Positions 25,984-64,000 of a stretch of 64,000 nt of DNA are shown here, one piece after another (within the stretch, counting starts at the first letter, position 1; the number at the start of each line of letters is the position of its first letter). The notes under the pieces were generated by a model. The model saw only the letters and a list, made by a program, of their open reading frames with translations, did not search any database and was not told the origin of the DNA. Both the position numbers and the translations under genes were made by a program. Origin of the DNA: a virus; IMG/VR virus record IMGVR_UViG_3300027792_000013, positions 1-64,000 of that record; one strand, given 5' to 3'.

Positions 25984-26055
25984 TGGGCCTACCAGGAGTT
26001 GAACCCGGAACGCTTCGGTTATGAGCCGAGTGATCTACCATTGATCTATAGGCCC
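25984..26055 (-). tRNA. tRNA with CAT anticodon, probably tRNA-Ile2 (lysidine type); Met not excluded
   Basis: GGGCCTATAGATCAATGGTAGATCACTCGGCTCATAACCGAAGCGTTCCGGGTTCAACTCCTGGTAGGCCCA folds into a cloverleaf; GGGCCT acceptor stem and A discriminator resemble Ile tRNAs; no encoded CCA. Confidence 0.9.
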
Positions 26056-40276: not shown

Positions 40277-40284
40277 TATTTATA
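40277..40284 (-). promoter_or_regulatory. Putative late promoter TATAAATA
   Basis: Overlaps the epimerase stop, just upstream of a GGAGG RBS. Confidence 0.5.
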
Positions 40285-43277: not shown

Positions 43278-44143
43278 TTTTCCTCTTTTTTTATTATATT
43301 ATTATATACTTCAGAACTTAATTTTCTCTTTCTAATATCATCAATATAATTATTGATAAATCCGTTGAATGTAAACCAACCAAAAAAATCTGTATCGTGA
43401 TGAAAACACCAATAAAGAAAATCATTATTAACATAACTAAGTCCAAAGTACTGAATAATTTTTGGATGGATTGGAGTCATCCACTGTGGTTTCATAATAA
43501 AATCATTGACAATATTTTTAGATAATTTTTTAAATCCAATATACTCTAAAATATTTTGTAACAAATCCAATTTATACTGAATAGATAAATGATTATATGT
43601 ATTAAAACAATATTGGGCAGTAAAATCGGTAAAAATGTTACTTAATTTAATATCACAAAAACTATCTATGTAATTAATTCTTTCTATGTCGGTTTTATAG
43701 ATATAATTAAGGACTTGTTCATCAAATTGTATTTCGTGTACTTTTTTAATAATTGTTTGATTGTCAAAATCCAAATTGTCATAAATAATATTTGTAATAT
43801 CTGAACCCAATCTATAGTTATATTCTCCAATTGATGACTTTCTTTGATATGGCCACAAACAATTAAATGTTGGGTATGGGTATGCAATTTTTTGCCCATT
43901 AATTTTTTGAATGTTTTCATTTAATAAAGCAGCTCGTTGATAAATCAAAAGATCACAGTTTTCCATTTCTTTATTTGATGGTACTGTATTAATGTATTTG
44001 TTTTCTGTTATAAAATATGGAACGATTTTATATTCTTTAACAAATGATTTGTGTTTTTTCAATAGATTGTAAAAATTAATTGCTAAGCAATGTCCCTCGA
44101 TTATACATATTTTTTTACTCATTTTTAAACCACCAATTTTCAC
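43274..44143 (-). CDS. WcbI-like polysaccharide biosynthesis protein (putative acetyltransferase)
   Basis: G.C near the N-terminus, F...WP, F.T.NH, PIHP.I..YFGL. Confidence 0.6.
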   Translation of the reverse strand: MKIGGLKMSKKICIIEGHCLAINFYNLLKKHKSFVKEYKIVPYFITENKYINTVPSNKEMENCDLLIYQRAALLNENIQKINGQKIAYPYPTFNCLWPYQRKSSIGEYNYRLGSDITNIIYDNLDFDNQTIIKKVHEIQFDEQVLNYIYKTDIERINYIDSFCDIKLSNIFTDFTAQYCFNTYNHLSIQYKLDLLQNILEYIGFKKLSKNIVNDFIMKPQWMTPIHPKIIQYFGLSYVNNDFLYWCFHHDTDFFGWFTFNGFINNYIDDIRKRKLSSEVYNNIIKKEEK

Positions 44144-44663
44144 CGGTCACATAAAATGGAATTTTCATATCATTAATTGCCATTTTAACACTTTCAATAC
44201 TATAATCATGCCCGGCAATAATTTTCAATTTTTTTGTTTTTTTGATAGCATTTTTAACATCTCGTATAACATCATTGAATTCATGAGATCCATCAATATA
44301 GAAAAAATCTATTGATTCATCGGGAATATAAACAATATCAAAAACTTCTAAACTGTTATAAACCACAGTAATAATATTTTTTTCTATGTCATAATTTTTT
44401 ATGTTTTGAAAAAATCGATTTTTTATTTCTAGTTCTTTTGCGGCTTTTTCTGTCGGTGGGTTACTTCCCTGAAATGTGTCAATACAAAAAACTCTAATAT
44501 TTTTTTGTTTAATTATATCAGCCACGGAACAAATTGATCGTCCCTCCCAACAACCAACTTCAATAGTTATAGAATAATTCGGTAAATTAGTATATTGTTT
44601 GCGATAAAACACAATATCATATGTATTAAACCAACCCCAAGGAAGTTCACTATTTTCGTTCAT
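44115..44663 (-). CDS. SAM-dependent O-methyltransferase (Methyltransf_24-like)
   Basis: EVGCWEGRS, IDTF.GS, YIDGSH....V..D, AGHDY. Confidence 0.85.
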   Translation of the reverse strand: MNENSELPWGWFNTYDIVFYRKQYTNLPNYSITIEVGCWEGRSICSVADIIKQKNIRVFCIDTFQGSNPPTEKAAKELEIKNRFFQNIKNYDIEKNIITVVYNSLEVFDIVYIPDESIDFFYIDGSHEFNDVIRDVKNAIKKTKKLKIIAGHDYSIESVKMAINDMKIPFYVTGENWWFKNE

Positions 44664-45582
44664 AATTCATACATGTTTTTTTGCAAATAGAATCATCGTT
44701 GTTTTTAATACAATTTCGCAACCTATTCAACTGCGGGCTATTATTCCAAATATCAACAAAACTATTGGTATTAATATTACCAACAACGAATCTACTCAAA
44801 AAACAACAAATCGCAACTTCACCTTCGGGAGCAATTGAAACCTCGGTCCAAGGAGAAATACAACTTGTAATTGGTTGCTTTACAATTTTTTCTGAAGTTC
44901 CCTCTGTTGGTCTCAAACTACCATAAATATCTATATTATATTTTTTAGCCAATTCATACGTCAAATTTAAAGTCTCCTTTTCTTTACTATCATATTTTAG
45001 TCCAAAACCTTCTGGATAAATATGTGATAATTCTAATATTGGTTCCTGTAATCGTACAACTTCAGCTCCGGTATTATGCGCATATTCTATGAATTTTGGC
45101 ATTTCCAAAAAATTGTAACGATTAACAATAACCGAAATTATTACATGATATGATCTTGGCTTTTTAACAAAACTTTCGTAGTTTCTAATAGTTTGTTCAA
45201 AGTTCCCTTGACCACCACTCAACATTATTTTGGTTTCCTTATCCAGTGAGTTCAGTGAAAAATTAATCCATTTAAGTGGAGAATCTCTCATAAGTTTTTG
45301 TTTTTCCACATCTAAATTTTCGCCAGTCGTAATAATACTATATTTTAACTTTCTGTCAATTAGCAACTGAATAATTTGATTAAAATTCGGATGTAAAAAA
45401 ACATCCCCATATCCACTTATATCAATATATTCTGTTTCCTCTGATTTAAAAGATCTAATAAAACTTTCTATTTTCTCAAAACTCAATAATATAGGTTTCA
45501 TATTTTTGTTATTACAAAAAATACATTTGTAACCACATGTAGTATTTGTACATAATGTTATACGAGATGGCATTTTAATCAT
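44650..45582 (-). CDS. Radical SAM/SPASM enzyme
   Basis: CGYKCIFC; C..PW....I...G.V..CC SPASM/twitch. Confidence 0.88.
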   Translation of the reverse strand: MIKMPSRITLCTNTTCGYKCIFCNNKNMKPILLSFEKIESFIRSFKSEETEYIDISGYGDVFLHPNFNQIIQLLIDRKLKYSIITTGENLDVEKQKLMRDSPLKWINFSLNSLDKETKIMLSGGQGNFEQTIRNYESFVKKPRSYHVIISVIVNRYNFLEMPKFIEYAHNTGAEVVRLQEPILELSHIYPEGFGLKYDSKEKETLNLTYELAKKYNIDIYGSLRPTEGTSEKIVKQPITSCISPWTEVSIAPEGEVAICCFLSRFVVGNINTNSFVDIWNNSPQLNRLRNCIKNNDDSICKKTCMNYERK

Positions 45583-46153
45583 AATATTCCTCCGATTTTA
45601 AAGTTGACCACATAATGAGATTTGATAAAAATCGAAATGATTTTTCTAATAGATGATCGGTTTGTAATACTGTTTCTCTTTTAAATAAACAGTCAAAATC
45701 GATCATAGTAAGTTTTGATTTATCTTCAGTGATAATAAAATTTCTTGGAGATGGATCTAAAATTACAATATTTCTATTATAAATTTCTGACAGAATTAGC
45801 ATCATTCTAGATAAAATCTCTCGTTTTTCTTCGAATTGAAACCATCCATTTTTTTCGGCATCATAAACACTAGAACCTTCTAAATACTCACTGAGTAAAT
45901 AGAATTTTTCGTTGTTCCACCAAAAATCGTAGATTTTTACAATATTTTCAATATCTTTAATTTTTGGATATATTTTTTTATATGGATTTGTATAAAGTTC
46001 ATAATTGATTTTACCGTTAATATTATCGTTTTCATCGGGGCTCATAATTTTTAAAGTGTACAATTCATAATTTTTTTCAACTAAGAAAATATTGGTTCTA
46101 TTTGTTTGTAGATTTGAATAAATATGCTTAATAATTTTATAATCCTTTACCAT
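45575..46153 (-). CDS. Protein-kinase-fold enzyme (putative glycan kinase)
   Basis: LK, SEYLEG hinge, D..PRNF catalytic loop, IDFD. Confidence 0.7.
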   Translation of the reverse strand: MVKDYKIIKHIYSNLQTNRTNIFLVEKNYELYTLKIMSPDENDNINGKINYELYTNPYKKIYPKIKDIENIVKIYDFWWNNEKFYLLSEYLEGSSVYDAEKNGWFQFEEKREILSRMMLILSEIYNRNIVILDPSPRNFIITEDKSKLTMIDFDCLFKRETVLQTDHLLEKSFRFLSNLIMWSTLKSEEYYD

Positions 46154-46788
46154 TTTCTCTCCAGTAAAAAAATCATTCTAGTTTCATTACTATGCATTCC
46201 CAAAAATACACCATAGAAAAAAGGAGTTAACCCCTCAAAGATTTTTTGGATGTTAAAGTTTTGTTTTTCTTCTGGCATATAATGATCGAACATAGTATTA
46301 CAGGAAATATCCTCCATTCCTACCGGTACCTCTAAAAACACTGATTTTGTTATTGTTGACAACTTTTCAAAAATCTTTGAATGGTTTTTATAATCTCTAT
46401 AAATATGATGATAAACACTACACATAATAACTAAATCAAATAATTCATCACTGTTATAATCAGTAAATGATTCAACTCGATATTCAATTGATTTACTGAA
46501 ATGTTCGGCAAAAATTTTGGCAGAATCGATAGAATCTTTTATGGTATCAATTCCAAGAATTCTCGTAGCGTATTTGGAAGATTCTAAACAATATAAACCA
46601 AAATTACAGCCTATATCAAATACACTACTTGGATTCAATTTTTCTAACACATGTCGTAAATGCCTGATTGTGTTACCGGCCTTTTGATCAATTTCGTAAC
46701 CACTTTCTGTAATTTTGAAATTTTGGTAAAAACTAATTCCATTTTTGTGTTTTTCGTCAATGATTTTTTGAAGTTGTTTAATTTCCAT
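46147..46788 (-). CDS. Class I methyltransferase, WbdD-N-like
   Basis: FDIGCNFG, GID, FDLVI..SVYHHI. Confidence 0.75.
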   Translation of the reverse strand: MEIKQLQKIIDEKHKNGISFYQNFKITESGYEIDQKAGNTIRHLRHVLEKLNPSSVFDIGCNFGLYCLESSKYATRILGIDTIKDSIDSAKIFAEHFSKSIEYRVESFTDYNSDELFDLVIMCSVYHHIYRDYKNHSKIFEKLSTITKSVFLEVPVGMEDISCNTMFDHYMPEEKQNFNIQKIFEGLTPFFYGVFLGMHSNETRMIFLLERKW

Positions 46789-48642
46789 TTAACCGTCCTT
46801 TCTACAATTTTTACAATATGCTATATCACCATTTTTTATAGCATTTCTAAGTTTAGTATATCTATCTCCGTTCCAAATCTCCTCGAAACTCTGTTTAAAA
46901 ATATTTCCCATAATCATTTTGGACCAACAGCAAGGAGTAACCACACCCTTAGAATTAATAAAAAATTTAGTATAAACCCAGTCACAATTTTTTATTTGTT
47001 CAGATAAGTTTTGAACTCTTTGAGTTGATCCAACTTGGGTATCAAAGTTAAAAATGTTAAATTGAGCTCCGATTTTTTCCGCATATGCTTTCCATTCAAT
47101 AATTTTAGTACGATTTTCCAGAGTATCTTTAATAATTAAATCCGGTGTATATGTTAGAGTTGGGGTCAATCCTAAACATGAAATATTTTTGTTGTAGTGT
47201 TTTGCCAATCTAATAAAACTAGGAACCTCATCAAAATTGTAGGCATTCATAACAAATGAAAAATACAAAGTCTTTTTGTATTGTTTGACGAATTCATTAA
47301 TGTTATATAAAACAACTTCTAATCCATCAACCCCCATTAACTGCTTATAAGTATGTTTGTTCAATGAATTCAATGAAACTACAACTTCATCAACAGTAGA
47401 ATTATAAATTAAATTACGATTTTTTTCATTCAGCAAATAACCATTTGTTACAAATCGAATAGGAACATTTTTATCTGATAATTTTTTAATAATATTTTCA
47501 AAATCCGGATGAGCTAAAATTTCACCATAGCCGGTAATATCAACCATTCTGGCATATTCTAAAAGGGAATCTATCCCTTTTATATCATTTAATGTTATAG
47601 TTCTTCTTTCATTTGGTTGCATTTTAGGATTATGACAAAACACACATTTGTAAATACATTTCGTGGTTAATTCCAAAAATAAATCTATACTTTTTGTTTT
47701 CATAACATGCTCCATAATTTTACCCAAAATCGTATTTTTGTAATCTAAAAAATTATTATAATCTACGTGATTTAAAAATACTTGAGAATCCGGAAATCCA
47801 GCATACCAATGAATCCCAATTGTTTTGCTAGTAAAATTTAGCTGAGATCTAATTAAAAAAAGTTCAGGAATCTGTTTATGTGTATGATATGGGTAAACAG
47901 TCATCATATCAATATTACCAACAACGCAATTTTGAAATCTCTTTTGTATTTCAGCCGGGGAACTAAACTCTTTGTTTAAAAGTTCAGATCCATGAGTTTG
48001 ATAACTATTAAAATTTATTTTGGTTCTAATAGCTTTTTGGTGGATGTATGTATAGTATTGATTTTTTGGTGAACTTAACATAAATCCGATGCTATGATAT
48101 GTATCTTTACCATTATCATTTATACTAACTATAGTATCAATATTTGCGTTTTCCGGCGAATTTAAATGCAACTCATTCATTGATCGAAAATATAAGATAT
48201 CCATATCTGACCACAACCCACCTACATTTGATAGGATGTCCCAACGTAAATAATCAGATTTTATTACCTCGGGTATTTCCCTGGGATCTTCTATATTTGG
48301 AATGTTAACATCTAATTCAAAAAATTTCAGTGGGAGTTTTCTCAATAAAAACATATAGTCATTGTTTAAATTTCTTTCAAACTTATGCTCAAATGTTGTC
48401 CATGTTTTTTTCTCACTTAATGTCAAAGGTGAATAAAATCTAATTTCCCAATCCGGATTGTATTTCATAAACGAAAACACTGTTAAATATTTTAAAAAAG
48501 GCAGAGTTTTAGCTCCCCAATAAAAATGAACTATTTTAGGAATTTTTTTCAAATACCACTCATATTTAGTTATTTTTTGGTATTCTGAAAGTCTCCATAA
48601 ATTCATATTTTGTTCGTTACGAATGGAATTCAAATCAAGCAT
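46789..48642 (-). CDS. GT32-like glycosyltransferase fused to a radical SAM/SPASM domain
   Basis: IPKIVHFYW, SDYLRW.IL...GG.WSDMD (DxD); then CIYKCVFC and SPASM CC...C..C. Confidence 0.85.
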   Translation of the reverse strand: MLDLNSIRNEQNMNLWRLSEYQKITKYEWYLKKIPKIVHFYWGAKTLPFLKYLTVFSFMKYNPDWEIRFYSPLTLSEKKTWTTFEHKFERNLNNDYMFLLRKLPLKFFELDVNIPNIEDPREIPEVIKSDYLRWDILSNVGGLWSDMDILYFRSMNELHLNSPENANIDTIVSINDNGKDTYHSIGFMLSSPKNQYYTYIHQKAIRTKINFNSYQTHGSELLNKEFSSPAEIQKRFQNCVVGNIDMMTVYPYHTHKQIPELFLIRSQLNFTSKTIGIHWYAGFPDSQVFLNHVDYNNFLDYKNTILGKIMEHVMKTKSIDLFLELTTKCIYKCVFCHNPKMQPNERRTITLNDIKGIDSLLEYARMVDITGYGEILAHPDFENIIKKLSDKNVPIRFVTNGYLLNEKNRNLIYNSTVDEVVVSLNSLNKHTYKQLMGVDGLEVVLYNINEFVKQYKKTLYFSFVMNAYNFDEVPSFIRLAKHYNKNISCLGLTPTLTYTPDLIIKDTLENRTKIIEWKAYAEKIGAQFNIFNFDTQVGSTQRVQNLSEQIKNCDWVYTKFFINSKGVVTPCCWSKMIMGNIFKQSFEEIWNGDRYTKLRNAIKNGDIAYCKNCRKDG

Positions 48643-50872
48643 TTTTAGCGTCTCTCATTTGAATCAATTTAGATGTCATTTCGTGAACATATTTCATTCC
48701 TTCTCTTTGTAATTTAGCCGATAAATTAAATGGATGTCTACGATGCCATCCACAAACTTTGGGTAAATATGCGAATCTAACACCATTTAAAACCATTCTA
48801 CAAAACATATCATGGTCTTCACAGGGAGTCAGTTGCCAATCACCAACATTTATTCTAGCATGTTTTCGCCACAACCAAATTACCCCGATATTATATCGTT
48901 CAAAAAATTTATGTGGATTCCATTCCATGTTCACTTCTTCATTATAATTTTTTCTTCGTTTTTCAATTAACCCAGTTTCATCCATTACACCAATTTCACA
49001 GCAAGTGTAAACAAAATCAATTTCGGGATGTGTATCAAGAAACATTACCATTTCTCTAAGTGCTTGAGTATAGTACTTATTATCACTGGCTATCCAGGTT
49101 TCGTATTCACCTTTACATACACTAAAACCAACATTAAGGGCACTTCCTGTACCACCGTTTTCTTTATGGATAATTTTTATTCTTGAATCCCTGATGTTGT
49201 CAATAATATTTTTTGTCTCATCCGTTGAACCATCATTTACAATGATCAATTCAAAATCTCTAAATGATTGATCTAAAACACTTCTGATTGATTCTTTGAT
49301 ATATTTAGATTGATTGAAAGTTGGCATTACAATTGAAACTTTTGGTTCTCCTTTTGTTGTATTTGTTGGCAAATGCATAATCATTCCCTTTCGTGTCATT
49401 CTTGAAGTTTGATAATGTTCAATTACAGATTCGTTAATACCTTTCATCAAATCAAAAATTTTTGTATATTCTGGTGGCAGTTTATAAACTTTAATATCAG
49501 GAAAAGCATTGACGACCTCTTGTAGATTTGTTTGTTCATTGCATTCGCTGGTATTAAGTTTTTCATTGTTTTTTTCAATCCATCTGTCAAATACAAATCT
49601 TCCTCTGTCGGTGTTTTTTACAAAAAGTGTTCCACTCAATAACTCAGTTCCATTTCTATAATGAGCGGCTAGATCACAATCAGTCAATTTAGTAAATAAG
49701 ATCGGATAAGTTTGAACTACGGCATCAGCATCAATCCAAACAATATCTTTTCCTCTATGTTTGTCCATCATTTCTCTAATAAAAGCTGCTTTGTAATATG
49801 AATTTATTCTCCAGTTCTTCCTAACTGTTGAGGGGTCATTAAGAGGTGCATAGTTTCCACTTAAAATCTTTTTGATGTCATAATCAATCCCAAATCTATT
49901 AAGCGATTCTATTAAGTTTTTAACGTTTTCTTCGTAAATTGTAGCTTCGGTAAAATAGGAAACCACTATAAATTTATTGGGGATATTAAATTCAAGTTTG
50001 TTATAATCAATAAAATCAAAACAACGAAGACGGGATTTTTCATTTGTATTAAATATTTTAAATCCCTCTTTTTTATATGTATTAGCAACTATCTCAAATT
50101 GTTTTACGTAATCCAATAAAACATTTTCATTTAGATTTGCTAGAGGATATCCGGCATGGTGATGAGTTTTTTCTGGTTCAACATAAAAGTCATAGCCTAA
50201 CAAATAGATTGGATTAGCGCCTAAAGCTAGAGCCAAAGACAATCCAGAAAATCCACTACAATTACCGCCAAAAATTCCTTTAGAAAGATCTAGACTCAAA
50301 CCATGGGGCCCTAAGTATGGAATTGTATATACTTCAGGACCGAACGGATAGTCATGAGTATCTAACCACGTTTTAAGTCCTTTATACTGATTGTATAATG
50401 CCTGATTTTCCGGTCCTAGTTTTGAAGCCTGAATCCATCTATAAAATCTTGAGTCACAACTATGCATAATTGGAGCAAACATGCAGGTTTCAAAACTACG
50501 ATTTAAAGCAATTATTTTTTCTGATTTTAATTTTGATATTTCTAATTGACTAACACTTGTACCACCACCAATAATAAAACATCTTTGATTTTTCCAAGCT
50601 CCACTTGTCATTATGTCACTTAAAAGTTTCTTTTTATTTGGTTGTGGTACCGGCGAAGATGATTTTGGTTTATTTACATTTTGTCTATGAGCATCTAAAT
50701 GTTTTTGCGAAACTATTGGTTGTTGTCCTGGTCTAGCTAGCATATTTTTGTATCGTAAATCTAGCCCTTCTGGTAAATTTGTGTTAATACCTACCTTAAT
50801 TTTATAAACCTTTTTTTCCGACGTTACTTCTAAATTCCATGGAGTTCCCAATAAATTAATATAGTCGGCCAT
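48635..50872 (-). CDS. Multidomain glycosyltransferase: Maf/DUF115-like domain, GT-A (WIDAD) and GT2
   Basis: CFIIGGG.S..IIALN...SG...L.LA..LGANPIYLLGYD; YKA.FI...IVWIDADA; KVSIVMPTFN...SVL.Q.F.DFELIIVNDGSTD. Confidence 0.85.
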   Translation of the reverse strand: MADYINLLGTPWNLEVTSEKKVYKIKVGINTNLPEGLDLRYKNMLARPGQQPIVSQKHLDAHRQNVNKPKSSSPVPQPNKKKLLSDIMTSGAWKNQRCFIIGGGTSVSQLEISKLKSEKIIALNRSFETCMFAPIMHSCDSRFYRWIQASKLGPENQALYNQYKGLKTWLDTHDYPFGPEVYTIPYLGPHGLSLDLSKGIFGGNCSGFSGLSLALALGANPIYLLGYDFYVEPEKTHHHAGYPLANLNENVLLDYVKQFEIVANTYKKEGFKIFNTNEKSRLRCFDFIDYNKLEFNIPNKFIVVSYFTEATIYEENVKNLIESLNRFGIDYDIKKILSGNYAPLNDPSTVRKNWRINSYYKAAFIREMMDKHRGKDIVWIDADAVVQTYPILFTKLTDCDLAAHYRNGTELLSGTLFVKNTDRGRFVFDRWIEKNNEKLNTSECNEQTNLQEVVNAFPDIKVYKLPPEYTKIFDLMKGINESVIEHYQTSRMTRKGMIMHLPTNTTKGEPKVSIVMPTFNQSKYIKESIRSVLDQSFRDFELIIVNDGSTDETKNIIDNIRDSRIKIIHKENGGTGSALNVGFSVCKGEYETWIASDNKYYTQALREMVMFLDTHPEIDFVYTCCEIGVMDETGLIEKRRKNYNEEVNMEWNPHKFFERYNIGVIWLWRKHARINVGDWQLTPCEDHDMFCRMVLNGVRFAYLPKVCGWHRRHPFNLSAKLQREGMKYVHEMTSKLIQMRDAKNA

Positions 50873-55474: not shown

Positions 55475-58045
55475 TTAAAACATAGTTTTCAATGAAATTT
55501 TTTCGGGATTAAAAAATTTGTCATGAATTGTCCAACCACATACTTTTCCTAAGTTATCTAAAGGATGTAAAAACGTTTTTTCGAATTGAGTTTCATAATC
55601 TATAGATTGGTCTAAACCCAACTCGGGAGGTAGAATAGTTAAAAACGCTATTACATTTTCCCCAATTTTGTTTGGAGTTTTAAGATAAATAAATTTAATT
55701 TTGGTTTTTTCCTGAATTAATCTATATTTCCCCAATAGGTTTAATTTTTTAATCCAGTAATTATATAATAGAGATCCTCTGACATGAATGGGGGTTGCTT
55801 TGGCATAAATATTTACATCGTCTCCATATTTTTTTAATCCTTGAACAGATCTTGGAAATGCGATTTCATCTGGTTTCATTTTATCATATTCTTCCCAAAA
55901 CTTCTTTATGCCAGACATTATTTTTTCCTCTGATTTCAGAAAAATATCATTCACAATTTCCTTTAATTTTGTTCTGATGACCTGCGGGGTGGAAGATCTG
56001 ACAATTTCAATTCCGGTAACTTTTAATGTTGGGGGATCACAAATTATATCTTCGTCAATATATTTCTGAATAATATATTTCTTTTTGGCTACAAAAAGAC
56101 CTTTTCCAACAACCTCTTGTTTCATAACAAGAGATTTTTTATAGACATTCAATATCGAATAAATCTCTTCAATTGCTTTTTCAATATATTTCGACACTTT
56201 TTTGTCACCAAATTCTTTTACAAATTTAGCGATTTCAGTATCTGACAATCCCGGTGATAATTTATTTGTCAATTTTGAACAAGAAATATATTCGGAATCT
56301 GTATCACAATAAACAACATCGATATGATCCTTTAAATTAGCTTTCAAATATTCCTCAATAAACCGAACTACATATTGACCTGTACATGTAATAGCCGAAG
56401 CAATTCTAATATCAAAATATCTAAATTTTTCATTTGCAAATGCTCCGTATCCGCTATTTAATAGAATTTTCAAAGCCTGTTGTTTCAAATCCAGACTTTT
56501 ATATAGAGATGTTTTACTTTTTGCGGATTTCATTTTCTTTTTGGTTTCTACTCGATCATTGTAAATGGTCTCCATAATATCACCAAAAATAGACGATTGA
56601 TCTTTTCTATAAAATTGTAAATTTGCTGTCATTGTTAAATTCTTTTCTTGTAAAATTGAAGTATCAACTTTTCTGAAAATCAAATTGTCCAATATAGAAT
56701 TATCGTCTTTTTTTGTTTCATCATAAAAACAAGCTAAAGAATCTATTCCAGGATTGTTAGGAAAAATTTTTGAAATCAAATCTTTTCTTGTATCCTCATC
56801 TGTTATTAGAGTCTGAGGAGAGATATTGCAATCAATAATAACATTTGGATACTCAGAATTTACATCGTATGAAATTACCCAATCATGAAACCCAATTTGT
56901 GGTTCTCTGACATATCCACCGGGATATTCTTCCTTTCTTGAATCTTTTTTAAAAGGCGGAACTATAAGATTTCGTTTTTTCTGCTCATTGTAAACAATCA
57001 CGTCCCAGACCTTTACGGCTGAAAAAATATCACAAAAAAGAACTTTGGCAGTATAAGCAATTGTTGTAGCTAAATTCAATAACTGTAATTTTTCTTCCAA
57101 AAGATAAACTAATTCAACATCATAGATATTATATTCGACAAACTTTTGTTTGTCATTTAAATAGAATTCATCTAAAGAATCTTCGTCAAACTTAACTTTT
57201 TCTTTGTTAAGTTCGACTTGTGAAATATGCGATAATGAATATGATTCCCTTGTTGTTGGTACATACTTTTTGTATAGATCCAAATAGTCTAAAATAGGAA
57301 TATGAAAATCCCAATGAGACAATCGACTTCCATTCACAAAAGATTCAATGGGATTGACATGCCCAATAGGACTCAAATCGTTTAAAACATTTGATCCAAT
57401 TACTTTGCAAATCCGGTTGGTTAAATATGGGATATCAAAATATTGGACATTCCACCCGGTAATAATATCCGGAGACAAAGATTTTATGACGTGAATAAAT
57501 AACTCCAAAAGTTCCCTTTCAGTTGTGACTTGTTTGAATTGAATTTTTTCTTTATCTATGTCTAATTGACATTTTGAAGTTTCAAAGGGGCAAGTACTTA
57601 AAACAAAAAATGATTTCGTTATACTATCTTTTATAGTAATCGAAGTAACCGGATATAATGCATCCTGTGGTTCAGCAAAACCTTGACTATTTGAAAAAAC
57701 TTCGATATCAATATAAACAGTTTTGATAAAATCTAGATTCCAAAATACTGATTGTTCTTCTCCCCATCTTGAATTAATAAATTGATATACTGGCGAAATT
57801 TCCCCATATAATGGAACATCTAGTTGTTTTTGATCATTTTTAAAATTATGATATTCTTTGATCGATAAACTATGTTTTTTCAAAAATTTATTATCAGTCC
57901 CTATATATTCAGTGGGTATTTGTGCCAAAGTATAGATTTCCGGATAAAAAATAACATCTCGTTTAAATTTCTTACCGGTTTCATTGTAACCAATACAACA
58001 TAAACTGTTACCGTTTGAAATCACATTTGTGTAAAATTCTTTCAT
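55475..58045 (-). CDS. gp43: Family B DNA polymerase (T4 gp43)
   Basis: ExoI DIE, GWN...FD, YN..DV; motif A D..S.YP, K..LNS.YG, DTDS, KKKY, G.EIVRSSTP. Confidence 0.97.
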   Translation of the reverse strand: MKEFYTNVISNGNSLCCIGYNETGKKFKRDVIFYPEIYTLAQIPTEYIGTDNKFLKKHSLSIKEYHNFKNDQKQLDVPLYGEISPVYQFINSRWGEEQSVFWNLDFIKTVYIDIEVFSNSQGFAEPQDALYPVTSITIKDSITKSFFVLSTCPFETSKCQLDIDKEKIQFKQVTTERELLELFIHVIKSLSPDIITGWNVQYFDIPYLTNRICKVIGSNVLNDLSPIGHVNPIESFVNGSRLSHWDFHIPILDYLDLYKKYVPTTRESYSLSHISQVELNKEKVKFDEDSLDEFYLNDKQKFVEYNIYDVELVYLLEEKLQLLNLATTIAYTAKVLFCDIFSAVKVWDVIVYNEQKKRNLIVPPFKKDSRKEEYPGGYVREPQIGFHDWVISYDVNSEYPNVIIDCNISPQTLITDEDTRKDLISKIFPNNPGIDSLACFYDETKKDDNSILDNLIFRKVDTSILQEKNLTMTANLQFYRKDQSSIFGDIMETIYNDRVETKKKMKSAKSKTSLYKSLDLKQQALKILLNSGYGAFANEKFRYFDIRIASAITCTGQYVVRFIEEYLKANLKDHIDVVYCDTDSEYISCSKLTNKLSPGLSDTEIAKFVKEFGDKKVSKYIEKAIEEIYSILNVYKKSLVMKQEVVGKGLFVAKKKYIIQKYIDEDIICDPPTLKVTGIEIVRSSTPQVIRTKLKEIVNDIFLKSEEKIMSGIKKFWEEYDKMKPDEIAFPRSVQGLKKYGDDVNIYAKATPIHVRGSLLYNYWIKKLNLLGKYRLIQEKTKIKFIYLKTPNKIGENVIAFLTILPPELGLDQSIDYETQFEKTFLHPLDNLGKVCGWTIHDKFFNPEKISLKTMF

Positions 58046-59253
58046 TCAAATATTTCCTTTAGATCATGTTTAATTGTATCTTCTTCAAATTTGTTAAAAA
58101 CCATTCCACTTTTAATTAACTCGTCAAGTTTTTTTCCTTTTGGTAAATCAAATATTTTGTCAATTAATGTAAAAATAAAAATATCATTTCGAGGAAAAAT
58201 GTCTCTTATAATTTCTTTTGAATTCAAGAAAAGTATATTTTCTAACTCAGTTTTATCTTTTATAAAGTGATACAAATTATGCAAGGATAAAAAACTATAA
58301 AAACGTGTCGTAAATGCCTGATTTTTTTCGTTAAATTCTTGATATATATGTCGCCAAGTTAAACCTTCACAAACTGGACAATCACAAGGTAGTGGAATAT
58401 CTAAATTAAGATGGTCAATTGAATCTATCTGTTTTGTTATAGTTAATTTGCTCGATTTAAAAATAGAAGTTTTGTAAGACCCGAATGCCGATGATAATAT
58501 AGGTGATGATGAATCGTATGAAATTTTGCATTTATACCCTAATTGATTTAGTTTATGTTGAAAATAAATCAACATGCGCATAATTTGATATGATGTTGCT
58601 CCAAAAATATGAAAAATTTTTCCTTTGCTGTTAAATCTATCAAATTCCCCGGATTCTAAAAACATAATAAGAGCATACAAAGTTAAAAATATATTTCGTG
58701 ATACAGATCCAATCGCCCACCCACCACTAAAATTAAAATCCTTGACTTTCTGATACCACGTAATCAATTGATCGATGCTTCTTCCTTGTAAAACATTCAT
58801 AAATTTTGTTTTGTTACTTTGATGAGTTTCAAACCATTGAAAATTAGAAAATGACATTTCTAAACATTCTTCAAATGTTTTTCTTCTGTTTCCTTTACTA
58901 GATGATATAAATGGTGGTATATCCAAATTTGGAGAGTAATTGGTATTTTCTTCTAACCAATCAAATATTTTTTCTCTAATCTCATCAGAATATTCTAAGT
59001 AGTCCGTAGTTATTTGATATCCACCAGAATCTCCCATCACTAATGTTTTAGTTAAGTCAATTTTTAATATTTCCTTAACCAAATTTGGTTTTTTATAATT
59101 ATGTCCGGCCGAAAACATAATTTTGTCATAATGAAAAATAGAATTTTCTTTATTGAAAAATCGCATAGACTTTTCTTTTATTAATTTATCAGTAATCATT
59201 TCATCATATAAACATCCTGTCGATATTGCTGGAATATATAAAGTTCTATTCAT
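58042..59253 (-). CDS. TGT-fold transglycosylase (DpdA-like, DNA deazaguanine insertion)
   Basis: DSGGYQ, LDIP, VLQG, GWAIG, HIFG, SYDSSS, Zn site CDCPVC...HN. Confidence 0.8.
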   Translation of the reverse strand: MNRTLYIPAISTGCLYDEMITDKLIKEKSMRFFNKENSIFHYDKIMFSAGHNYKKPNLVKEILKIDLTKTLVMGDSGGYQITTDYLEYSDEIREKIFDWLEENTNYSPNLDIPPFISSSKGNRRKTFEECLEMSFSNFQWFETHQSNKTKFMNVLQGRSIDQLITWYQKVKDFNFSGGWAIGSVSRNIFLTLYALIMFLESGEFDRFNSKGKIFHIFGATSYQIMRMLIYFQHKLNQLGYKCKISYDSSSPILSSAFGSYKTSIFKSSKLTITKQIDSIDHLNLDIPLPCDCPVCEGLTWRHIYQEFNEKNQAFTTRFYSFLSLHNLYHFIKDKTELENILFLNSKEIIRDIFPRNDIFIFTLIDKIFDLPKGKKLDELIKSGMVFNKFEEDTIKHDLKEIFE

Positions 59254-59276
59254 TTAATGACCTACCTTATTTAATT

Positions 59277-59305
59277 ATTATACCAAAAAACTTAAAAAAA
59301 CTTTC
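59277..59305 (-). promoter_or_regulatory. Class II variant promoter GAAAGT-N17-TATAAT for the DpdA-like and gp43 genes
   Basis: Spacing conserved; one mismatch to consensus. Confidence 0.5.
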
Positions 59306-59331
59306 TTTTTTTAGTAGAAAAATATATGTTT

Positions 59332-60339
59332 TCATATATACTCCTTGATTTTTTCAAACCCAACAAATTTATTAATCAATATTTGTCTTTGTATTTTTAA
59401 TAATTCATCCAATTTATTTTTATTCATTGAGTTAATTTGTTTGACAAAATGCAAAAACGTTTTAATTATTTCATTGTCGGATAAGAGATTCTCATATTTA
59501 AATTCTGATATATACATTTCTTCGTAAGACAATCGATTTGGAATAAATGGAACCACATCTAAAAATACTCCCTCAACAGCACTTATACCAAATGTTTCTT
59601 GAAGATTGGCACTAAATAAAAATTTACTACTCGTTAGTAATTTATAATAATCTTTTTTTGTTTTGCATTCTTCTAAACTAACAACAAAAGACATGTCTTT
59701 TATTTCATTTTTCATTCTCCTAAATAAGTCAATTCTTTTTTCCACTGATAGTCTATGTGGAAAAATTACCTGATTTTTCTTTAAATCACGATCCATTTTA
59801 TACTTATTTAAATAATCTATTTTGTATGGAAATCCAACTACTTTTATTTTGTCTTTATATGTATTCCCAAAATTATTTATGATCATTTTTTTATGAAAAT
59901 CAGTTGTAACAAAAGATATGTCGGAACAATCTAATAAACTTTTTTCAAATCCATTGAAATACTTATTTGCACCAACTAATCCTAATAAATCATATGGATC
60001 ATAACTTCCAGCATGCCAATAAGAATAGATTTTAATATTAATTCCACTTAAAAGTGACATATATTTTACTGCTATAATCCCATAATGCCAGGCATCATAA
60101 AACAAAAATTTATCATTTGGTTTAATTAATTTTTTATTGAATAAATCTGCCATTTTACTAATTTGTTCTGATTTCCACTTATTAGTATTAAAAATATCTA
60201 AAAAATTTTTGTTATTACTTATACCAGATCTAGTTTTTCCGTCTATTTCAATCGAGTCCGGAAATTCTTCTTTAAACCATACTTTCCACTGTTTTGTATA
60301 TCTTGTCTCTAATGGTTCCAATGTAACTAAATATAGCAT
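59332..60339 (-). CDS. GT-B (GT4-like) glycosyltransferase
   Basis: LEP.ETRYT.QW, WHAGSYDP.D.LG, FPHRLS.EK, LQETFGIS..EG, P.RLSY.E. Confidence 0.8.
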   Translation of the reverse strand: MLYLVTLEPLETRYTKQWKVWFKEEFPDSIEIDGKTRSGISNNKNFLDIFNTNKWKSEQISKMADLFNKKLIKPNDKFLFYDAWHYGIIAVKYMSLLSGINIKIYSYWHAGSYDPYDLLGLVGANKYFNGFEKSLLDCSDISFVTTDFHKKMIINNFGNTYKDKIKVVGFPYKIDYLNKYKMDRDLKKNQVIFPHRLSVEKRIDLFRRMKNEIKDMSFVVSLEECKTKKDYYKLLTSSKFLFSANLQETFGISAVEGVFLDVVPFIPNRLSYEEMYISEFKYENLLSDNEIIKTFLHFVKQINSMNKNKLDELLKIQRQILINKFVGFEKIKEYI

Positions 60340-60359
60340 ATTAACCTCCATAATCTATT

Positions 60360-61091
60360 TTAATATATATATTCAATATCTTTAATAGACCAACCATCTT
60401 TTTTTAAAGAAATTCCATAATTATTTACTTTTTTACTCCAAGCCAATTCAGATACCCACTTTTTTTCTGAATAACTATATCTAAGATGGTAAATACTATC
60501 ATTACAAAATATATAGTGAGGTTTTATTTTTTTATGTTTGAAAATTAAATCAGAAAAAACAAACCAATCTATTGTTTTTTTAGTATTTAATAATTTTTTT
60601 AAAATAACAGTATCTTCTATAAAAGTATCATATTTTTGTAAATAACAACATCCCAACATTGAAAGATAAATATCATCATTTACAAACATCGGTGCTTTTC
60701 TGATTCCTATATCAACTCTATTTTCTATAAATGACATATAGACTATGTTTTTATTTTCCACAAATTTTAAAATGTTTTGAATAACTTTTTCATTAAAAAT
60801 AAAATCATCGTCAAAAATAAAGTAGTTTTTACGATTTAAATTATTCATATATTTAAGCATGTAATAAGTAGTTTTATTTATATTGCCACCACCTAATCCT
60901 GAAAATATATTCCACTTTTTTATCATCAATACTTCGAGTAACTTTTTCTGAAACCCAGTTAAGTCATTTTCCCCATCTTTGATTACTAACAAATTACCAA
61001 CAGTATTAAATGTTGATAGTACTGTTAAAAAAGCAGTAAAACATTCATACCCAAGAGTTCTTACCACAATTGTAAAATTTTTTTCTTTCAT
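60360..61091 (-). CDS. GT-A-like glycosyltransferase (divergent)
   Basis: TIVVRT N-terminal strand, FIFDDD DxD motif, DW, YH. Confidence 0.5.
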   Translation of the reverse strand: MKEKNFTIVVRTLGYECFTAFLTVLSTFNTVGNLLVIKDGENDLTGFQKKLLEVLMIKKWNIFSGLGGGNINKTTYYMLKYMNNLNRKNYFIFDDDFIFNEKVIQNILKFVENKNIVYMSFIENRVDIGIRKAPMFVNDDIYLSMLGCCYLQKYDTFIEDTVILKKLLNTKKTIDWFVFSDLIFKHKKIKPHYIFCNDSIYHLRYSYSEKKWVSELAWSKKVNNYGISLKKDGWSIKDIEYIY

Positions 61092-61097
61092 ATTTAT

Positions 61098-61727
61098 TTA
61101 CATAAAAAGATTAAACACTTTATCATTTTTAAACCATAATCTTTCACAAAAAAGATTGTTTTTATGTAAATAAAAATACAAGCTATTTATTAAAGAAATA
61201 TCAATCTGTGATTTATATAACATAACCAATCTTATTTTATCAAAAATATCTATATTAATAAATGCATGATTAAAATTATTATTTTTTAAAAAATCATTGG
61301 TTTTAAATTGTACATTATCGGCATATGGTAAATCCTCATAAAAAATTAATTTATCATCGGGTAATATATTTTTAAAAGTTTCAAAGCATATAACATGATC
61401 TATATGTTCTTCAATTGATAATGGCAAGAAAACGAAATCATACCAACATAAATTTATTTTAACATCTATGTTTATTTTTAATTTCGAACGTAACTTAGAA
61501 TCTAAAAAATTTAAGTGAATATAATTTGCATTTACATGTTTACAGAAACTTTTGTCTTCTTGTAATCTTGTATTATATGGATTTTCCGATTTTATATTTT
61601 CATTTAATAGATAATTACTTTTATTAAAAACCGTTAAAATAGTTTTTTTACCTATTATTCTTTGTATAGATCCACCAATAGAAAAAGCAATATCATCGAA
61701 ATGTGGTTGAACAAATAATATCTTCAT
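61098..61727 (-). CDS. PIG-L/LmbE-family N-deacetylase
   Basis: PHFDD...S.GG, R..ED, HIDH, YEDLPY, YKSQ. Confidence 0.88.
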   Translation of the reverse strand: MKILFVQPHFDDIAFSIGGSIQRIIGKKTILTVFNKSNYLLNENIKSENPYNTRLQEDKSFCKHVNANYIHLNFLDSKLRSKLKINIDVKINLCWYDFVFLPLSIEEHIDHVICFETFKNILPDDKLIFYEDLPYADNVQFKTNDFLKNNNFNHAFINIDIFDKIRLVMLYKSQIDISLINSLYFYLHKNNLFCERLWFKNDKVFNLFM

Positions 61728-62167
61728 TTTTTGTAATCTACCATATATTTTTCCCAGTCATTATAACTAAAAGAATCTGAAATAAATATACCATCAATTG
61801 ATTCTATTTTTAAAGATACTTGATTTATATTACTCAAAGTCAGATTATTAGTTTTTAAAGTAAATATTTTATGAATGTAGTGATTTGATAATATATAAGC
61901 CGGTATCTTAAAAATTTCATCTATTTCATATTCAGCAACAATGATATATTTATTTACATCTATTGTTGATAAAAATTCAAATAATTCTTTATTGTCTATT
62001 TTTGATTGATTACATGCTCCAAAATAAATCCTTTTAATATCCACATCTTTTTCTAGTATATTTTTAATTTCATTTAGAGAAAAAGATCCTTTGACAAATA
62101 AAGTTTTGATTTTATCTTTTTCTATCCCTTCAACTTCTACCGATACAAAATAAGGTTTATCTAACAT
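61724..62167 (-). CDS. Hypothetical protein of the modification cluster
   Basis: YF...EVEG.....KTLFV, IYFGA.NQS; start approximate. Confidence 0.55.
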   Translation of the reverse strand: MLDKPYFVSVEVEGIEKDKIKTLFVKGSFSLNEIKNILEKDVDIKRIYFGACNQSKIDNKELFEFLSTIDVNKYIIVAEYEIDEIFKIPAYILSNHYIHKIFTLKTNNLTLSNINQVSLKIESIDGIFISDSFSYNDWEKYMVDYKK

Positions 62168-62873
62168 TTTTTTTCTCACTTTCACCATGATCATTGCTGT
62201 ATCCTAAACAAGTTTCACATTTTTTAATAATTCTATTTTCAATATTCGTTTCCCAAATATTCCCCAAAACACAATCACTACTATCATCAAAACACTCACA
62301 ACATCTTACTATTTTACCATTAGATAGTACTACCACCTCATTATTTACAAGAAAAGAACAATTTTTGAAATCACTCCTTTTCTCTGTATTATTTAATTGA
62401 CCCAGGTCCCGCAATCGTTTGGTAAAACATTTGAATCCATTATTTAAAAGATCTAGTATAATGTCTTTATATTTTTCTTCGTCAAAAAATAATATATTTA
62501 TTTTATCTTTGTCATTTTTTATTTCACTCAAATTTTTAATTGAGTTATAATTGTGAAAGGAAATGTATAATTTACTTAACCCCATTTTTATTAAAGACGA
62601 AAAATTACTATTAGTTAATAGAATTCCATTCGTATTTAATTCAACTTTTATTTTTTTATTATTTAATACTTTTATTGTATATAATAATATATCTAATTCC
62701 AAAAGACTTTCTCCAAAATGATGTAATCGTACTTTTTTCGATGTGATAATATTACATATATGGTCTATCACATCTTTATCAATTGTTTTAATAGGTCTTG
62801 TCATCGCACTTCTTGGGCAATAATAACAACTTAAGTTACATTTATTTGTTATTTCAATTTGATATATATTCAT
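62157..62873 (-). CDS. Radical SAM enzyme with SPASM/twitch domain
   Basis: QIEITNKCNLSCYYCPR, LHHFGESLL, NTNG, C.....G.IV.CC...LGN...C..C. Confidence 0.85.
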   Translation of the reverse strand: MNIYQIEITNKCNLSCYYCPRSAMTRPIKTIDKDVIDHICNIITSKKVRLHHFGESLLELDILLYTIKVLNNKKIKVELNTNGILLTNSNFSSLIKMGLSKLYISFHNYNSIKNLSEIKNDKDKINILFFDEEKYKDIILDLLNNGFKCFTKRLRDLGQLNNTEKRSDFKNCSFLVNNEVVVLSNGKIVRCCECFDDSSDCVLGNIWETNIENRIIKKCETCLGYSNDHGESEKKNVR

Positions 62874-63206
62874 CTAATAATACTCTTTTAGTGATCCATT
62901 TTCATTATCTTCTGATATTTCAATTTTAATTTTTCTTTTAGGAAATTTGGTGGAAATTTTTTTATAAAAAAAATCAGATATTGCCTCACAAGATTTGTTA
63001 TTAAGATTCTTATTTTTTATTAAAGATTCTACGAAACTTTTGAATAAAAAGAACTCTATATCACGATCATTGTGGAAAACTTCTATCCATATTTTTACAT
63101 AAAAAATATGACGGTGGATATTTTTTAAAAATTTTACTTCTGGTGGGGCATCTGTATATCGATGAAACCCAACAAAATTAGTAGTAATCCATATAAAACT
63201 ATTCAT
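62874..63206 (-). CDS. QueD-like T-fold protein with LxxxHRHxF motif (DpdL-like)
   Basis: GFH, LKNIHRHIF, HNDRDIEF, SCE, SEDNENG; lacks the CxxxHGH of QueD; start MNSFIW. Confidence 0.75.
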   Translation of the reverse strand: MNSFIWITTNFVGFHRYTDAPPEVKFLKNIHRHIFYVKIWIEVFHNDRDIEFFLFKSFVESLIKNKNLNNKSCEAISDFFYKKISTKFPKRKIKIEISEDNENGSLKEYY

Positions 63207-63207
63207 T

Positions 63208-63822
63208 CTATTTCTTAATGTAATGTAAAAATTCTTCTTTTGTACTAATATCAAGAAAACAGCCTTTTAATGAAGTAGTTATCATCCAGGCATTCGGTTC
63301 TTGAATTCCTCTGATCTGCATGCAACCATGTTGAGCTTTAATATAAACTCCACATCCTACCGGTTGAAGTTTTTCATCAATGAACTCCGATATTTGTTCC
63401 GTTAATTCTTCTTGAATTTGTGGTCTTTTGGTAAACCAATCAACAATTCGAGCCAGCTTAGAAATGCCAGTAATTAGCTTATTGGGAATGTATCCTATAT
63501 AAGCCTCACCAACAAATGGGACAAAATGATGAGAACATAATGAATTTACGCGAATTGGACCCAAAACAATCATAGAGTTAATCTGTTTGGTATTGACGAA
63601 AAATGTTATCTTTGGAGACGGTTCATAACAGCCTTTTAAAAGTTCCCTAACATACATTTTGGCAATTCTTTTAGGGGTTTCGTTTAAATTTTGATCTAAA
63701 TTCATATCAAATCCCAAGATCTTTAAAATTGATATAAAATGAGTTTGTACTTCGTCTTCCATGATTTTCAATTCAGATTCCGTTTTTATCTTATTGTCAT
63801 TCGCAATTCCTAGTCCTGGCAT
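63208..63822 (-). CDS. folE: GTP cyclohydrolase I
   Basis: ETPKRIAKMY, SLCSHHFVPF.G, GISKLARIV, RPQIQE, H.CM..RG. Confidence 0.96.
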   Translation of the reverse strand: MPGLGIANDNKIKTESELKIMEDEVQTHFISILKILGFDMNLDQNLNETPKRIAKMYVRELLKGCYEPSPKITFFVNTKQINSMIVLGPIRVNSLCSHHFVPFVGEAYIGYIPNKLITGISKLARIVDWFTKRPQIQEELTEQISEFIDEKLQPVGCGVYIKAQHGCMQIRGIQEPNAWMITTSLKGCFLDISTKEEFLHYIKK

Positions 63823-63856
63823 TTTTACTCCTTCTTTTAAATCAATTTATTGGTCT

Positions 63857-63885
63857 ATTATAATATATTTCATATTTTTACTTAA
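63857..63885 (-). promoter_or_regulatory. Class II promoter TTAAGT-N17-TATAAT heading the folE operon
   Basis: Exact motif and spacing. Confidence 0.65.
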
Positions 63886-64000
63886 TATAATCTGGCATGT
63901 AAATAAAACTTATCAGCTATATTTGTACTAAGATTCAAAATAACTAGTTTTGTTTCAAATATTAACGTCCAGTTATCAGGTAAATCAGTTCCAAATAATC

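Follow-up and report, generated by a model that had tools for sequence, protein, structure and literature searches.

Cellulophaga phage phiST carries a system for 7-deazaguanine in DNA (dDG) that consists of FolE, QueD, QueE, DpdL and DpdA3 (PMC10516641). DpdL is a QueD paralogue defined by the change of the QueD signature CxxxHGH to LxxxHRHxF (Cui, Hutinet et al., NAR 2023, PMC10516641) and has been proposed, without proof, to decarboxylate 7-carboxy-7-deazaguanine (CDG) to 7-deazaguanine (PMC10516641). Here we analyse the first 64 kb (the window) of the 115,928-bp IMG/VR viral contig IMGVR_UViG_3300027792_000013, which is linear and has approximately 31% G+C, and in particular a run of nine genes that leads from folE to the DNA polymerase gene. 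The FolE/QueD/QueE/DpdL/DpdA core of this locus is already published; what is new is the set of sugar enzymes placed within it. On the strength of the sequence comparisons we lean towards the view that the locus is a QueC-less, DpdL-type module of a T4-like phage, which puts into DNA a 7-deazaguanine-type base carrying a tailored amino sugar.

The proposed pathway would run as follows. FolE, QueD and QueE would convert GTP to CDG, which DpdL and a conserved protein termed X would convert to the base for insertion, the step for which decarboxylation has been proposed in the literature. A DpdA-like enzyme of the tRNA-guanine transglycosylase (TGT) fold would swap guanine in DNA for that base after replication, and a glycosyltransferase of family GT4 would move a sugar from a nucleoside diphosphate sugar onto the deazapurine, either once the base is in DNA or earlier, while it is still free. 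The PIG-L enzyme would deacetylate an N-acetylhexosamine (HexNAc) to a cationic amino sugar, the BtrN-like radical S-adenosylmethionine (SAM) enzyme would oxidise a secondary alcohol of the sugar and the GT-A enzyme would add a second sugar. Such a base would protect the G sites against restriction and against other defences that target DNA. The genes concerned are listed in order of transcription, with the two that lie beyond the window given first.

Contig 65492-66001, minus strand: QueD (CPH4 synthase), beyond the window; PF01242 (PTPS) 1.7e-18, above cut-off
Contig 64747-65490, minus strand: QueE (CDG synthase), beyond the window; Radical_SAM and Fer4_12 domains, TIGR03963 1.4e-29
63208-63822, minus strand: FolE, GTP cyclohydrolase I; PF01227 9.4e-54, TIGR00063 186 bits against a cut-off of 181.6
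62874-63206, minus strand: DpdL, predicted QueD paralogue without the catalytic Cys; motif LKNIHRHIF, ATG at 63206, 1 nt after the folE stop
62157-62873, minus strand: predicted BtrN-like "twitch" radical SAM dehydrogenase, 238 aa; CxxxCxxC and auxiliary Cys
61724-62194, minus strand: protein X, 156 aa; probable start at 62167, family of about 140-175 aa
61098-61727, minus strand: PIG-L/LmbE de-N-acetylase, 209 aa; PF02585 4.1e-9, 37.5 bits against a cut-off of 28.2
60360-61091, minus strand: GT-A-like candidate, 243 aa; ESM Atlas model and FDDD motif
59332-60351, minus strand: predicted GT4-type (GT-B, retaining) glycosyltransferase, 339 aa; likely start M5 at 60339
58042-59253, minus strand: TGT-fold, DpdA-like transglycosylase, 403 aa; conserved catalytic Asp and zinc site
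55475-58045, minus strand: gp43-type family B DNA polymerase; Pfam DNA_pol_B and exonuclease domain, a context gene

The contig and phiST share the QueC-less CDG pathway and the DpdL signature, and their gene order is similar, with a TGT-fold gene separating DpdL from the DNA polymerase gene in both. However, phiST lacks GT4, X, the second radical SAM enzyme, PIG-L and GT-A, all five of which are present in the contig; its DpdA3, of 259 aa, shows no detectable relatedness to the 403-aa TGT protein other than in fold, and phiST has a Pol III alpha-type polymerase. Closer in gene content are the uncharacterised DpdL/GT4/TGT modules of several cultured phages, namely ACP17, the PA5oct-like Wroclawvirus, Xanthomonas BUDD/X1, Sinorhizobium Phosso and Burkholderia BCSR5, in which the GT4 protein is 32-37% identical (down to 1e-64) and DpdL 36-43% identical to that of the contig, beside QueD, QueE and FolE. 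ACP17 has protein X in addition, and all of them lack the BtrN-like enzyme, PIG-L and GT-A found in the contig; we found no paper on the chemistry of the modification in these GT4-type phages. The alpha- and beta-glucosyltransferases of T4 are GT-B enzymes that add a sugar to 5-hydroxymethylcytosine after replication, and share with the proposed module the concept of a post-replicative sugar on a non-canonical base. In T4, though, the acceptor is the hydroxymethyl group of a pyrimidine, whereas the contig has a proposed deazapurine and no hydroxymethylase, and the T4 enzymes are not among the listed top structure matches of the GT4 model.

The CDG pathway, DpdL and the TGT-fold enzyme

Together, FolE, QueD and QueE strongly suggest that the phage genes would suffice for the route from GTP through dihydroneopterin triphosphate (H2NTP) and 6-carboxytetrahydropterin (CPH4) to CDG. 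The best NCBIfam matches of QueE are five QueE models, at 1.4e-29 to 2e-12 and all under their equivalog cut-offs, and QueD has the signature C-R-N-L-H-G-H, i.e. the canonical CxxxHGH. A first-pass annotation, made from the window alone, had stated that the locus has no canonical QueD, QueE, QueC or QueF and had called for a search of the rest of the genome. That search of the 116-kb contig found QueD and QueE and neither QueC nor QueF. As QueE and QueD are oriented like the run and are located just 0.9-2.2 kb beyond the window, their reported absence was a window-edge artefact, and with both encoded the GTP-derived base would pass through ordinary CDG.

The small T-fold protein downstream of folE had been taken as DpdL-like from its LxxxHRHxF motif, and both the motif and homology bear this out. 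Its LKNIHRHIF aligns with LSLNHRHLF of phiST, LGSPHRHLF of ACP17 and also with the DpdL of PA5oct, and contrasts with the QueDs; tblastn matches were obtained to ACP17 (2e-13) and to phiST DpdL (7e-7). The gene set associated with DpdL, that is FolE, QueD and QueE with a DpdA and without QueC, is the one found in the contig.

For the TGT protein, 43 relatives of approximately 400 aa were found, and conservation was read over an alignment of 40 of them. Invariant in the family are D75-S-G-G-x-Q, D111, D247 and CxCxxC...H325, which in the contig's protein read D75-S-G-G-Y-Q, D111, D247 and C-D-C-P-V-C...H325. Archaeosine TGT (1.5e-7) and bacterial TGT (1e-5) are both found by the family profile, these motifs being in register, and PF01702 is matched by 22 of the 40 members, the contig's own protein scoring 16.8 bits, under the Pfam cut-off. 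Searched as a single protein for related loci, it gave no close relatives, and PDB searches with the single sequences of the GT-B, GT-A and TGT proteins gave no matches, so that profiles were needed. The protein is matched by ASD50403 of ACP17 (hhalign 96.7%) and by EST35_0316 of PA5oct (tblastn 6e-14, 26% identity), and we assign it, by homology, to the ACP17/PA5oct type of phage DpdA-like enzyme. The motifs, these homologies and the ATGA by which its stop overlaps the gp43 start, as seen in the sequence, uphold the earlier description of a DpdA-like enzyme adjoining the polymerase.

What is known of these two phages bears on the substrate. The ACP17 relative is treated as the phage's dpdA by Cui et al. 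(PMC10516641), and ASD50403 sits where, on the gene map, their ACP17 dpdA must lie. PA5oct virion DNA is resistant to several restriction enzymes, the pattern of resistance pointing to modified G, and the phage is attacked by defences that sense modified G, the chemistry of the modification not being reported there (PMC12191111). In all phages studied so far that combine deazaguanine genes with a DpdA, the base is found in DNA (PMC10516641).

The GT4 glycosyltransferase, protein X and their linkage to the TGT gene

Neither the 339-aa nor the 243-aa protein itself matches a family in Pfam, NCBIfam or PHROG, and the folds of both glycosyltransferases were assigned via homologues, a structure model and the ESM Atlas. 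The 339-aa protein has at least 569 homologues, of which 28 of 38 sampled match PF00534 (Glycos_transf_1), and R196, K201 and E248-x7-E256 are invariant in the family. The top Foldseek matches of its AlphaFold2 model (predicted local distance difference test, pLDDT, 94.4) are BshA, MshA and other GT4 enzymes. We identify it on homology and model as a GT4 glycosyltransferase. Of the two glycosyltransferases named in the first-pass annotation, the GT-B enzyme is thus supported as GT4, and the GT-A enzyme stays a candidate at the level of fold.

In a profile scan of IMG/VR the TGT family was detected in at least 595 viral contigs; 80 loci were fetched and all their open reading frames (ORFs) clustered. 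Among these loci TGT was counted in 77, GT4 in 65, the polymerase in 50, DpdL in 39, FolE in 35, QueE in 31 and QueD in 23, so that GT4, DpdL and the CDG genes recur with the TGT family across viral loci, a co-occurrence that the first-pass annotation had proposed to examine. In 55 loci the sequence reaches 1.3 kb or more upstream of the TGT gene, enough to place GT4: it ends no more than 400 bp upstream of the TGT start in 43 of them and lies within 6 kb in 49. The cultured phages PA5oct and ACP17 have the same DpdL/GT4/TGT trio, and in Phosso DpdL and GT4 are adjacent, with a TGT-like match about 170 kb away. In most related loci the module lies beside the polymerase in a setting of replication genes. 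A complex prediction for the TGT protein and GT4 scored 0.00, which speaks neither for nor against binding.

Five loci lack GT4. In four of them QueC was found beside the TGT gene, and one of these, L007, is the relative with the closest synteny to the contig. No QueC was found in three 100%-complete GT4-type genomes. As these four GT4-less loci carry QueC and the three complete GT4-type genomes do not, CDG appears to be the branch point between QueC, i.e. the classical route to 7-cyano-7-deazaguanine (preQ0) and 7-amido-7-deazaguanine (ADG), and DpdL with GT4. The linkage would place DpdL, X, GT4 and the TGT enzyme together in a single pathway, as the alternative to QueC.

The QueC genes lie at L007:6283-7077, L008:5348-6151 and contig position 17862-18464 of L023, and also occur in L071. 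These QueC-type relatives lack GT4 and DpdL and carry two families of small, conserved ORFs, f91 (about 140 aa) and f92 (about 165 aa); L008 in addition encodes a 217-aa radical SAM protein distantly related to the BtrN-like enzyme (1.5e-12). A paralogue of the TGT family, of 420-480 aa, was seen in about 45 mostly alphaproteobacterial chromosomal loci (GTDB, L096-L139; match at about 8001 in each), among them loci of Novosphingobium, Azospirillum, Roseovarius and Pseudohongiella. It mostly stands directly after an unannotated protein of 570-650 aa without a Pfam match, and no GT4 or DpdL was found within 8 kb of these loci, which may represent an undescribed bacterial TGT-based system.

The 156-aa ORF had been described merely as hypothetical; family members in 36 of the 80 loci indicate otherwise. 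The hidden Markov models (HMMs) of two ORF families, f11 (34 loci) and f78, match the contig's X, and the f78 model also matches ASD50402 (1.2e-12), in ACP17 the next gene upstream of TGT. X matches weakly the proteins beside the radical SAM homologues in L090 (3e-6) and L089 (1e-4). The joint alignment has the motifs G-x-EVEG, TLFV, IYF and a C-terminal Y-x-x-D. In all 36 of the TGT-seeded loci that match the family HMM, GT4 is present, and X usually lies 0.4-0.75 kb upstream of DpdL. The contig's X matches its family with modest scores (17-21 bits), the assignment resting on motifs and position. No relative of X was found in Pfam, PHROG or the PDB, and its ESM Atlas model is poor (pLDDT 0.51), with unusable structure matches. 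By its recurrence and motifs, we take X to be the fourth core gene of the module, a conserved family rather than an orphan.

Sugar-tailoring genes, layout of the run and the wider contig

The radical SAM protein has the cysteines C12xxxC16xxC19 together with conserved C172, C191, C192, C219 and C222, in a compact family whose members measure about 240 aa. BtrN (4M7S/4M7T) is the best match of the family profile, at 2.5e-24 over the full length (residues 5-224), with MoaA next at 8e-12. In Foldseek the AlphaFold2 model (pLDDT 89.5) matches BtrN first and SpeY second, both of them twitch radical SAM dehydrogenases from aminoglycoside pathways. It had been annotated as a radical SAM/SPASM protein; the CxxxCxxC motif and Cys-rich C terminus stand, and the family is resolved as that of a BtrN-like twitch dehydrogenase, an activity predicted from profile and model. 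These profile and fold matches rule out a second QueE. Homologues with 44-47% identity lie beside DpdL and GT4 in the loci L088-L090, and from this recurrence in three further loci the BtrN-like enzyme emerges as a recurrent accessory of the module.

The PIG-L protein scores above the PF02585 cut-off and has both zinc motifs, PHFDD and HIDH, which align to PHxDD and HxDH of diacetylchitobiose deacetylase 8BGN (1e-3). A single-protein search for related loci with PIG-L gave no close relatives. For the 243-aa protein no homologue was found among 5.8 billion proteins; its ESM Atlas model (predicted template-modelling score 0.76) has template-modelling scores of 0.66-0.74 to GT2 clusters over about 220 residues, and its FDDD motif is DxD-like, so that the evidence for a GT-A enzyme is at fold level only. 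The first-pass annotation had joined all of these sugar enzymes into one module. GT4, locked to the TGT gene, and the recurrent BtrN-like enzyme fit that picture, and PIG-L and GT-A were found in the contig only.

Other sugar-related genes occupy the DpdL/GT4 slot in other loci: a GFO/IDH/MocA oxidoreductase, a second GT4 and an alcohol dehydrogenase in L006, a short-chain dehydrogenase/reductase, a DAO oxidoreductase and a second GT4 in L088, and Methyltransf_24 and FkbM methyltransferases in L017 and L090. A 143-aa cytidylyltransferase-like protein (family f21; PF01467, 1.5e-10) lies just upstream of DpdL in 14 loci (e.g. L018:8216-8647), a position which hints that the GT4 donor there may be a phage-activated CDP- or ADP-linked substrate. 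Homing-endonuclease-like genes lie between DpdL and GT4 at L079:8367-8951 (HNH/GmrSD_C) and L013:7953-8618 (NUMOD3); with such insertions the DpdL/GT4 junction is a hot spot for genes of any kind, not only for sugar genes.

The nine co-directional ORFs on the minus strand agree in position with those first annotated. In order of transcription they encode FolE, the T-fold protein, radical SAM, the 156-aa ORF, PIG-L, the 243-aa ORF, the 339-aa ORF, the TGT-like protein and the polymerase, with intergenic gaps of 0-78 nt. The run had been thought to begin at folE, headed by one promoter. Co-directional pathway genes, however, extend upstream beyond the window end, past the following features.

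63823-63881 (59 bp), minus strand: gap before folE; TATAAT-like box, AAGGAG ribosome site
Contig 63882-64490, minus strand: 202-aa ORF whose 3' end lies in the window at 63882-64000; no family match
Contig 64507-64737, minus strand: 76-aa ORF beyond the window; no family match

Although TATAAT and AAGGAG are indeed present before folE, sigma-70-like matches in this AT-rich DNA occur at the chance rate (23 found against 21.7 expected). A second TATAAT-like site lies before the TGT gene, where the 78-bp gap between GT4 and TGT (59254-59331) has a T-rich stretch and a TGgTATAAT-like box and could be an internal promoter of TGT and the polymerase. Because of the chance-rate matches and this second site we do not accept the claim of a single promoter. 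The 202-aa and 76-aa ORFs gave no Pfam, NCBIfam or PHROG match and had no relative in the related loci; the idea that the 202-aa ORF might be a divergent QueC or MazG found no support in the family searches.

By its sequence the source virus is a T4-like phage only distantly related to cultured ones: the family B polymerase shares 38% identity with cyanomyophage gp43, and megablast against 50,697 phage records gave no nucleotide-level relative of the region. The sole tRNA of the 116-kb contig is a tRNA-Met (CAT) at 25984-26055 on the minus strand; the contig therefore offers no phage-encoded tRNA with a GUN anticodon as a substrate. No hydroxymethylase of the thymidylate synthase type was found in the contig, and GT4 acting on 5-hydroxymethylcytosine or 5-hydroxymethyluracil was accordingly rejected for it, within the limits of its 64% completeness.

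A second and larger sugar island, of 11 kb, lies on the minus strand at 40280-50872 and includes the following genes.

40280-43277, minus strand: CapG/CapF/CapE-like genes; Epimerase_2 1.2e-76, RmlD-like 3.4e-11, Polysacc_synt_2 8.9e-84

These genes encode a UDP-GlcNAc 2-epimerase, an RmlD-like reductase and a CapE-like 4,6-dehydratase, the last with CapE as its best PDB match (6.6e-61). The island also encodes WcbI, two methyltransferases, a radical SAM/SPASM enzyme, a small kinase-like protein, a fusion of a glycosyltransferase (DxD) with radical SAM/SPASM, and a 745-aa GT2 protein. The CapG/CapF/CapE-like set could conceivably supply a UDP-2-acetamido-2,6-dideoxyhexose (6-deoxy-HexNAc) donor to the DNA module, or the island could instead serve another glycan.

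Competing explanations and meaning for the phages

The same three enzyme types that stand together in the run, a sugar transferase, a deacetylase and a BtrN-type dehydrogenase, are met in BshA/BshB, MshA/MshB, PIG-A/PIG-L and the BtrM/BtrD/BtrN enzymes of butirosin synthesis. In BshA/BshB, MshA/MshB and BtrM/BtrD, GlcNAc is transferred and then deacetylated. Since the GT4 model is nearest to the UDP-GlcNAc transferases BshA and MshA, and PIG-L lies two genes upstream of GT4, we counted this likeness in favour of a HexNAc that is deacetylated. In contrast to the thiol and butirosin pathways, the contig lacks a cyclitol synthase, an aminotransferase and a thiol ligase, and its genes are embedded in a viral nucleobase pathway.

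Several points weigh against a sugar-bearing deazaguanine in DNA. The main weakness is that plain 7-deazaguanine has no obvious hydroxyl for a retaining GT4 (CDG has a carboxylate). The only DpdL phages that have been measured, the phiST group, contain plain dDG, and DpdL activity could not be reconstituted by Cui et al. (PMC10516641); the phiST group also lacks GT4. The TGT protein has no detectable relatedness to phiST DpdA3 (CGPG_00065; BLASTP E 0.12, hhalign probability 13.8%), for which reason we do not place it in DpdA3, the subfamily of phiST and Campylobacter phages, and it is context alone that points to DNA as its probable substrate. PIG-L and GT-A have no counterpart in 83 related loci, so that their link to the module is positional only and the two genes could be unrelated cargo. 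The separate 11-kb glycan island indicates that the phage has sugar genes for other purposes too, and the contig is 64% complete by CheckV.

A bolder form of the proposal is an aminoglycoside-like decoration of deazaguanine, in which a HexNAc added by GT4 is deacetylated, oxidised by the BtrN-like enzyme and joined to a second sugar. It would be the first case of a glycosylated purine in any DNA, and GT4 and X would be the factors missing from the DpdL/DpdA reconstitution. We put it forward tentatively, as a possibility that we would not expect to hold in every part.

The strongest rival is a plain dDG system like that of phiST, with GT4, GT-A, PIG-L and the radical SAM enzyme as cargo acting on virion proteins, a host envelope glycan or a small molecule. 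dDG is the sole product measured for a DpdL system (PMC10516641), and the missing sugar acceptor on 7-deazaguanine, the glycan island at 40-51 kb and the restriction of PIG-L and GT-A to the contig all agree with it. We nevertheless consider it unlikely, as it leaves unexplained why GT4 and the TGT gene are direct neighbours in 43 of 55 loci, and also in cultured phages that are unrelated, why QueC takes the place of GT4 where GT4 is absent, why the BtrN-like enzyme is found only beside DpdL and GT4, and why sugar-tailoring genes elsewhere pile up in exactly the DpdL/GT4 slot.

It is also conceivable that the genes make a free glycosylated pterin or deazapurine, or an aminoglycoside-like metabolite, with DNA not the target. 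In the BH4-glucoside and cyanopterin pathways, cyanobacterial pteridine glycosyltransferases make pterin glycosides, for which FolE, two PTPS-family proteins and a GT-B enzyme would be the ingredients, and the BtrN-like enzyme, GT4 and PIG-L mirror steps of butirosin synthesis. With QueE, however, the pterin is committed to becoming a deazapurine, the linkage of GT4 is to the TGT gene and not to folE, and the module stands among replication genes beside the polymerase in most loci. Furthermore, no 2-deoxy-scyllo-inosose synthase was found among the cluster ORFs scanned and no DegT aminotransferase in the contig, and we hold such a metabolite to be improbable. The least probable reading, that the TGT enzyme modifies host tRNA at position 34 or 15 and that the deazaguanine is then glycosylated, retuning translation during infection, can appeal to the closest solved TGT relatives, which are tRNA enzymes, and to the mannosyl- and galactosyl-queuosine of animal tRNA, made by GT4- and GT2-family enzymes, but is opposed by the treatment of the ACP17 relative as dpdA, the apparent G modification of PA5oct DNA, the overlap of the TGT gene with the polymerase start, the tRNA-Met that is the contig's only tRNA and the finding of the base in DNA in the phages studied.

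A deazaguanine in DNA that carries a tailored amino sugar thus remains the reading we favour. To our knowledge, the natural sugar-bearing DNA bases are all pyrimidines, namely glucosyl- and arabinosyl-hydroxymethylcytosine, base J and sugar-bearing derivatives of hydroxymethyluracil, and the known 7-deazaguanines in DNA carry small groups only. We found no paper on a glycosyltransferase in such loci or on a glycosylated deazaguanine in DNA, and Cui et al. mention no glycosyltransferase in DpdL/DpdA loci (PMC10516641). New here are the insert of BtrN-like, X, PIG-L and GT-A genes, the dichotomy between QueC and DpdL/GT4, and X as a fourth core gene.

The contig has the richest tailoring set among the loci examined, and its BtrN-like, PIG-L and GT-A genes suggest a lineage-specific diversification of the sugar under an arms race with host defences. 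From the TGT-linked GT4, which hundreds of environmental T4-like contigs share with several cultured phages, we predict a DNA base of a new chemical class. If this is true, it would account for the END nucleases and deazaguanine glycosylases that sense such phages, would provide new enzymes for site-specific glycosylation of DNA, and may fill in what the unproven DpdL step still lacks.

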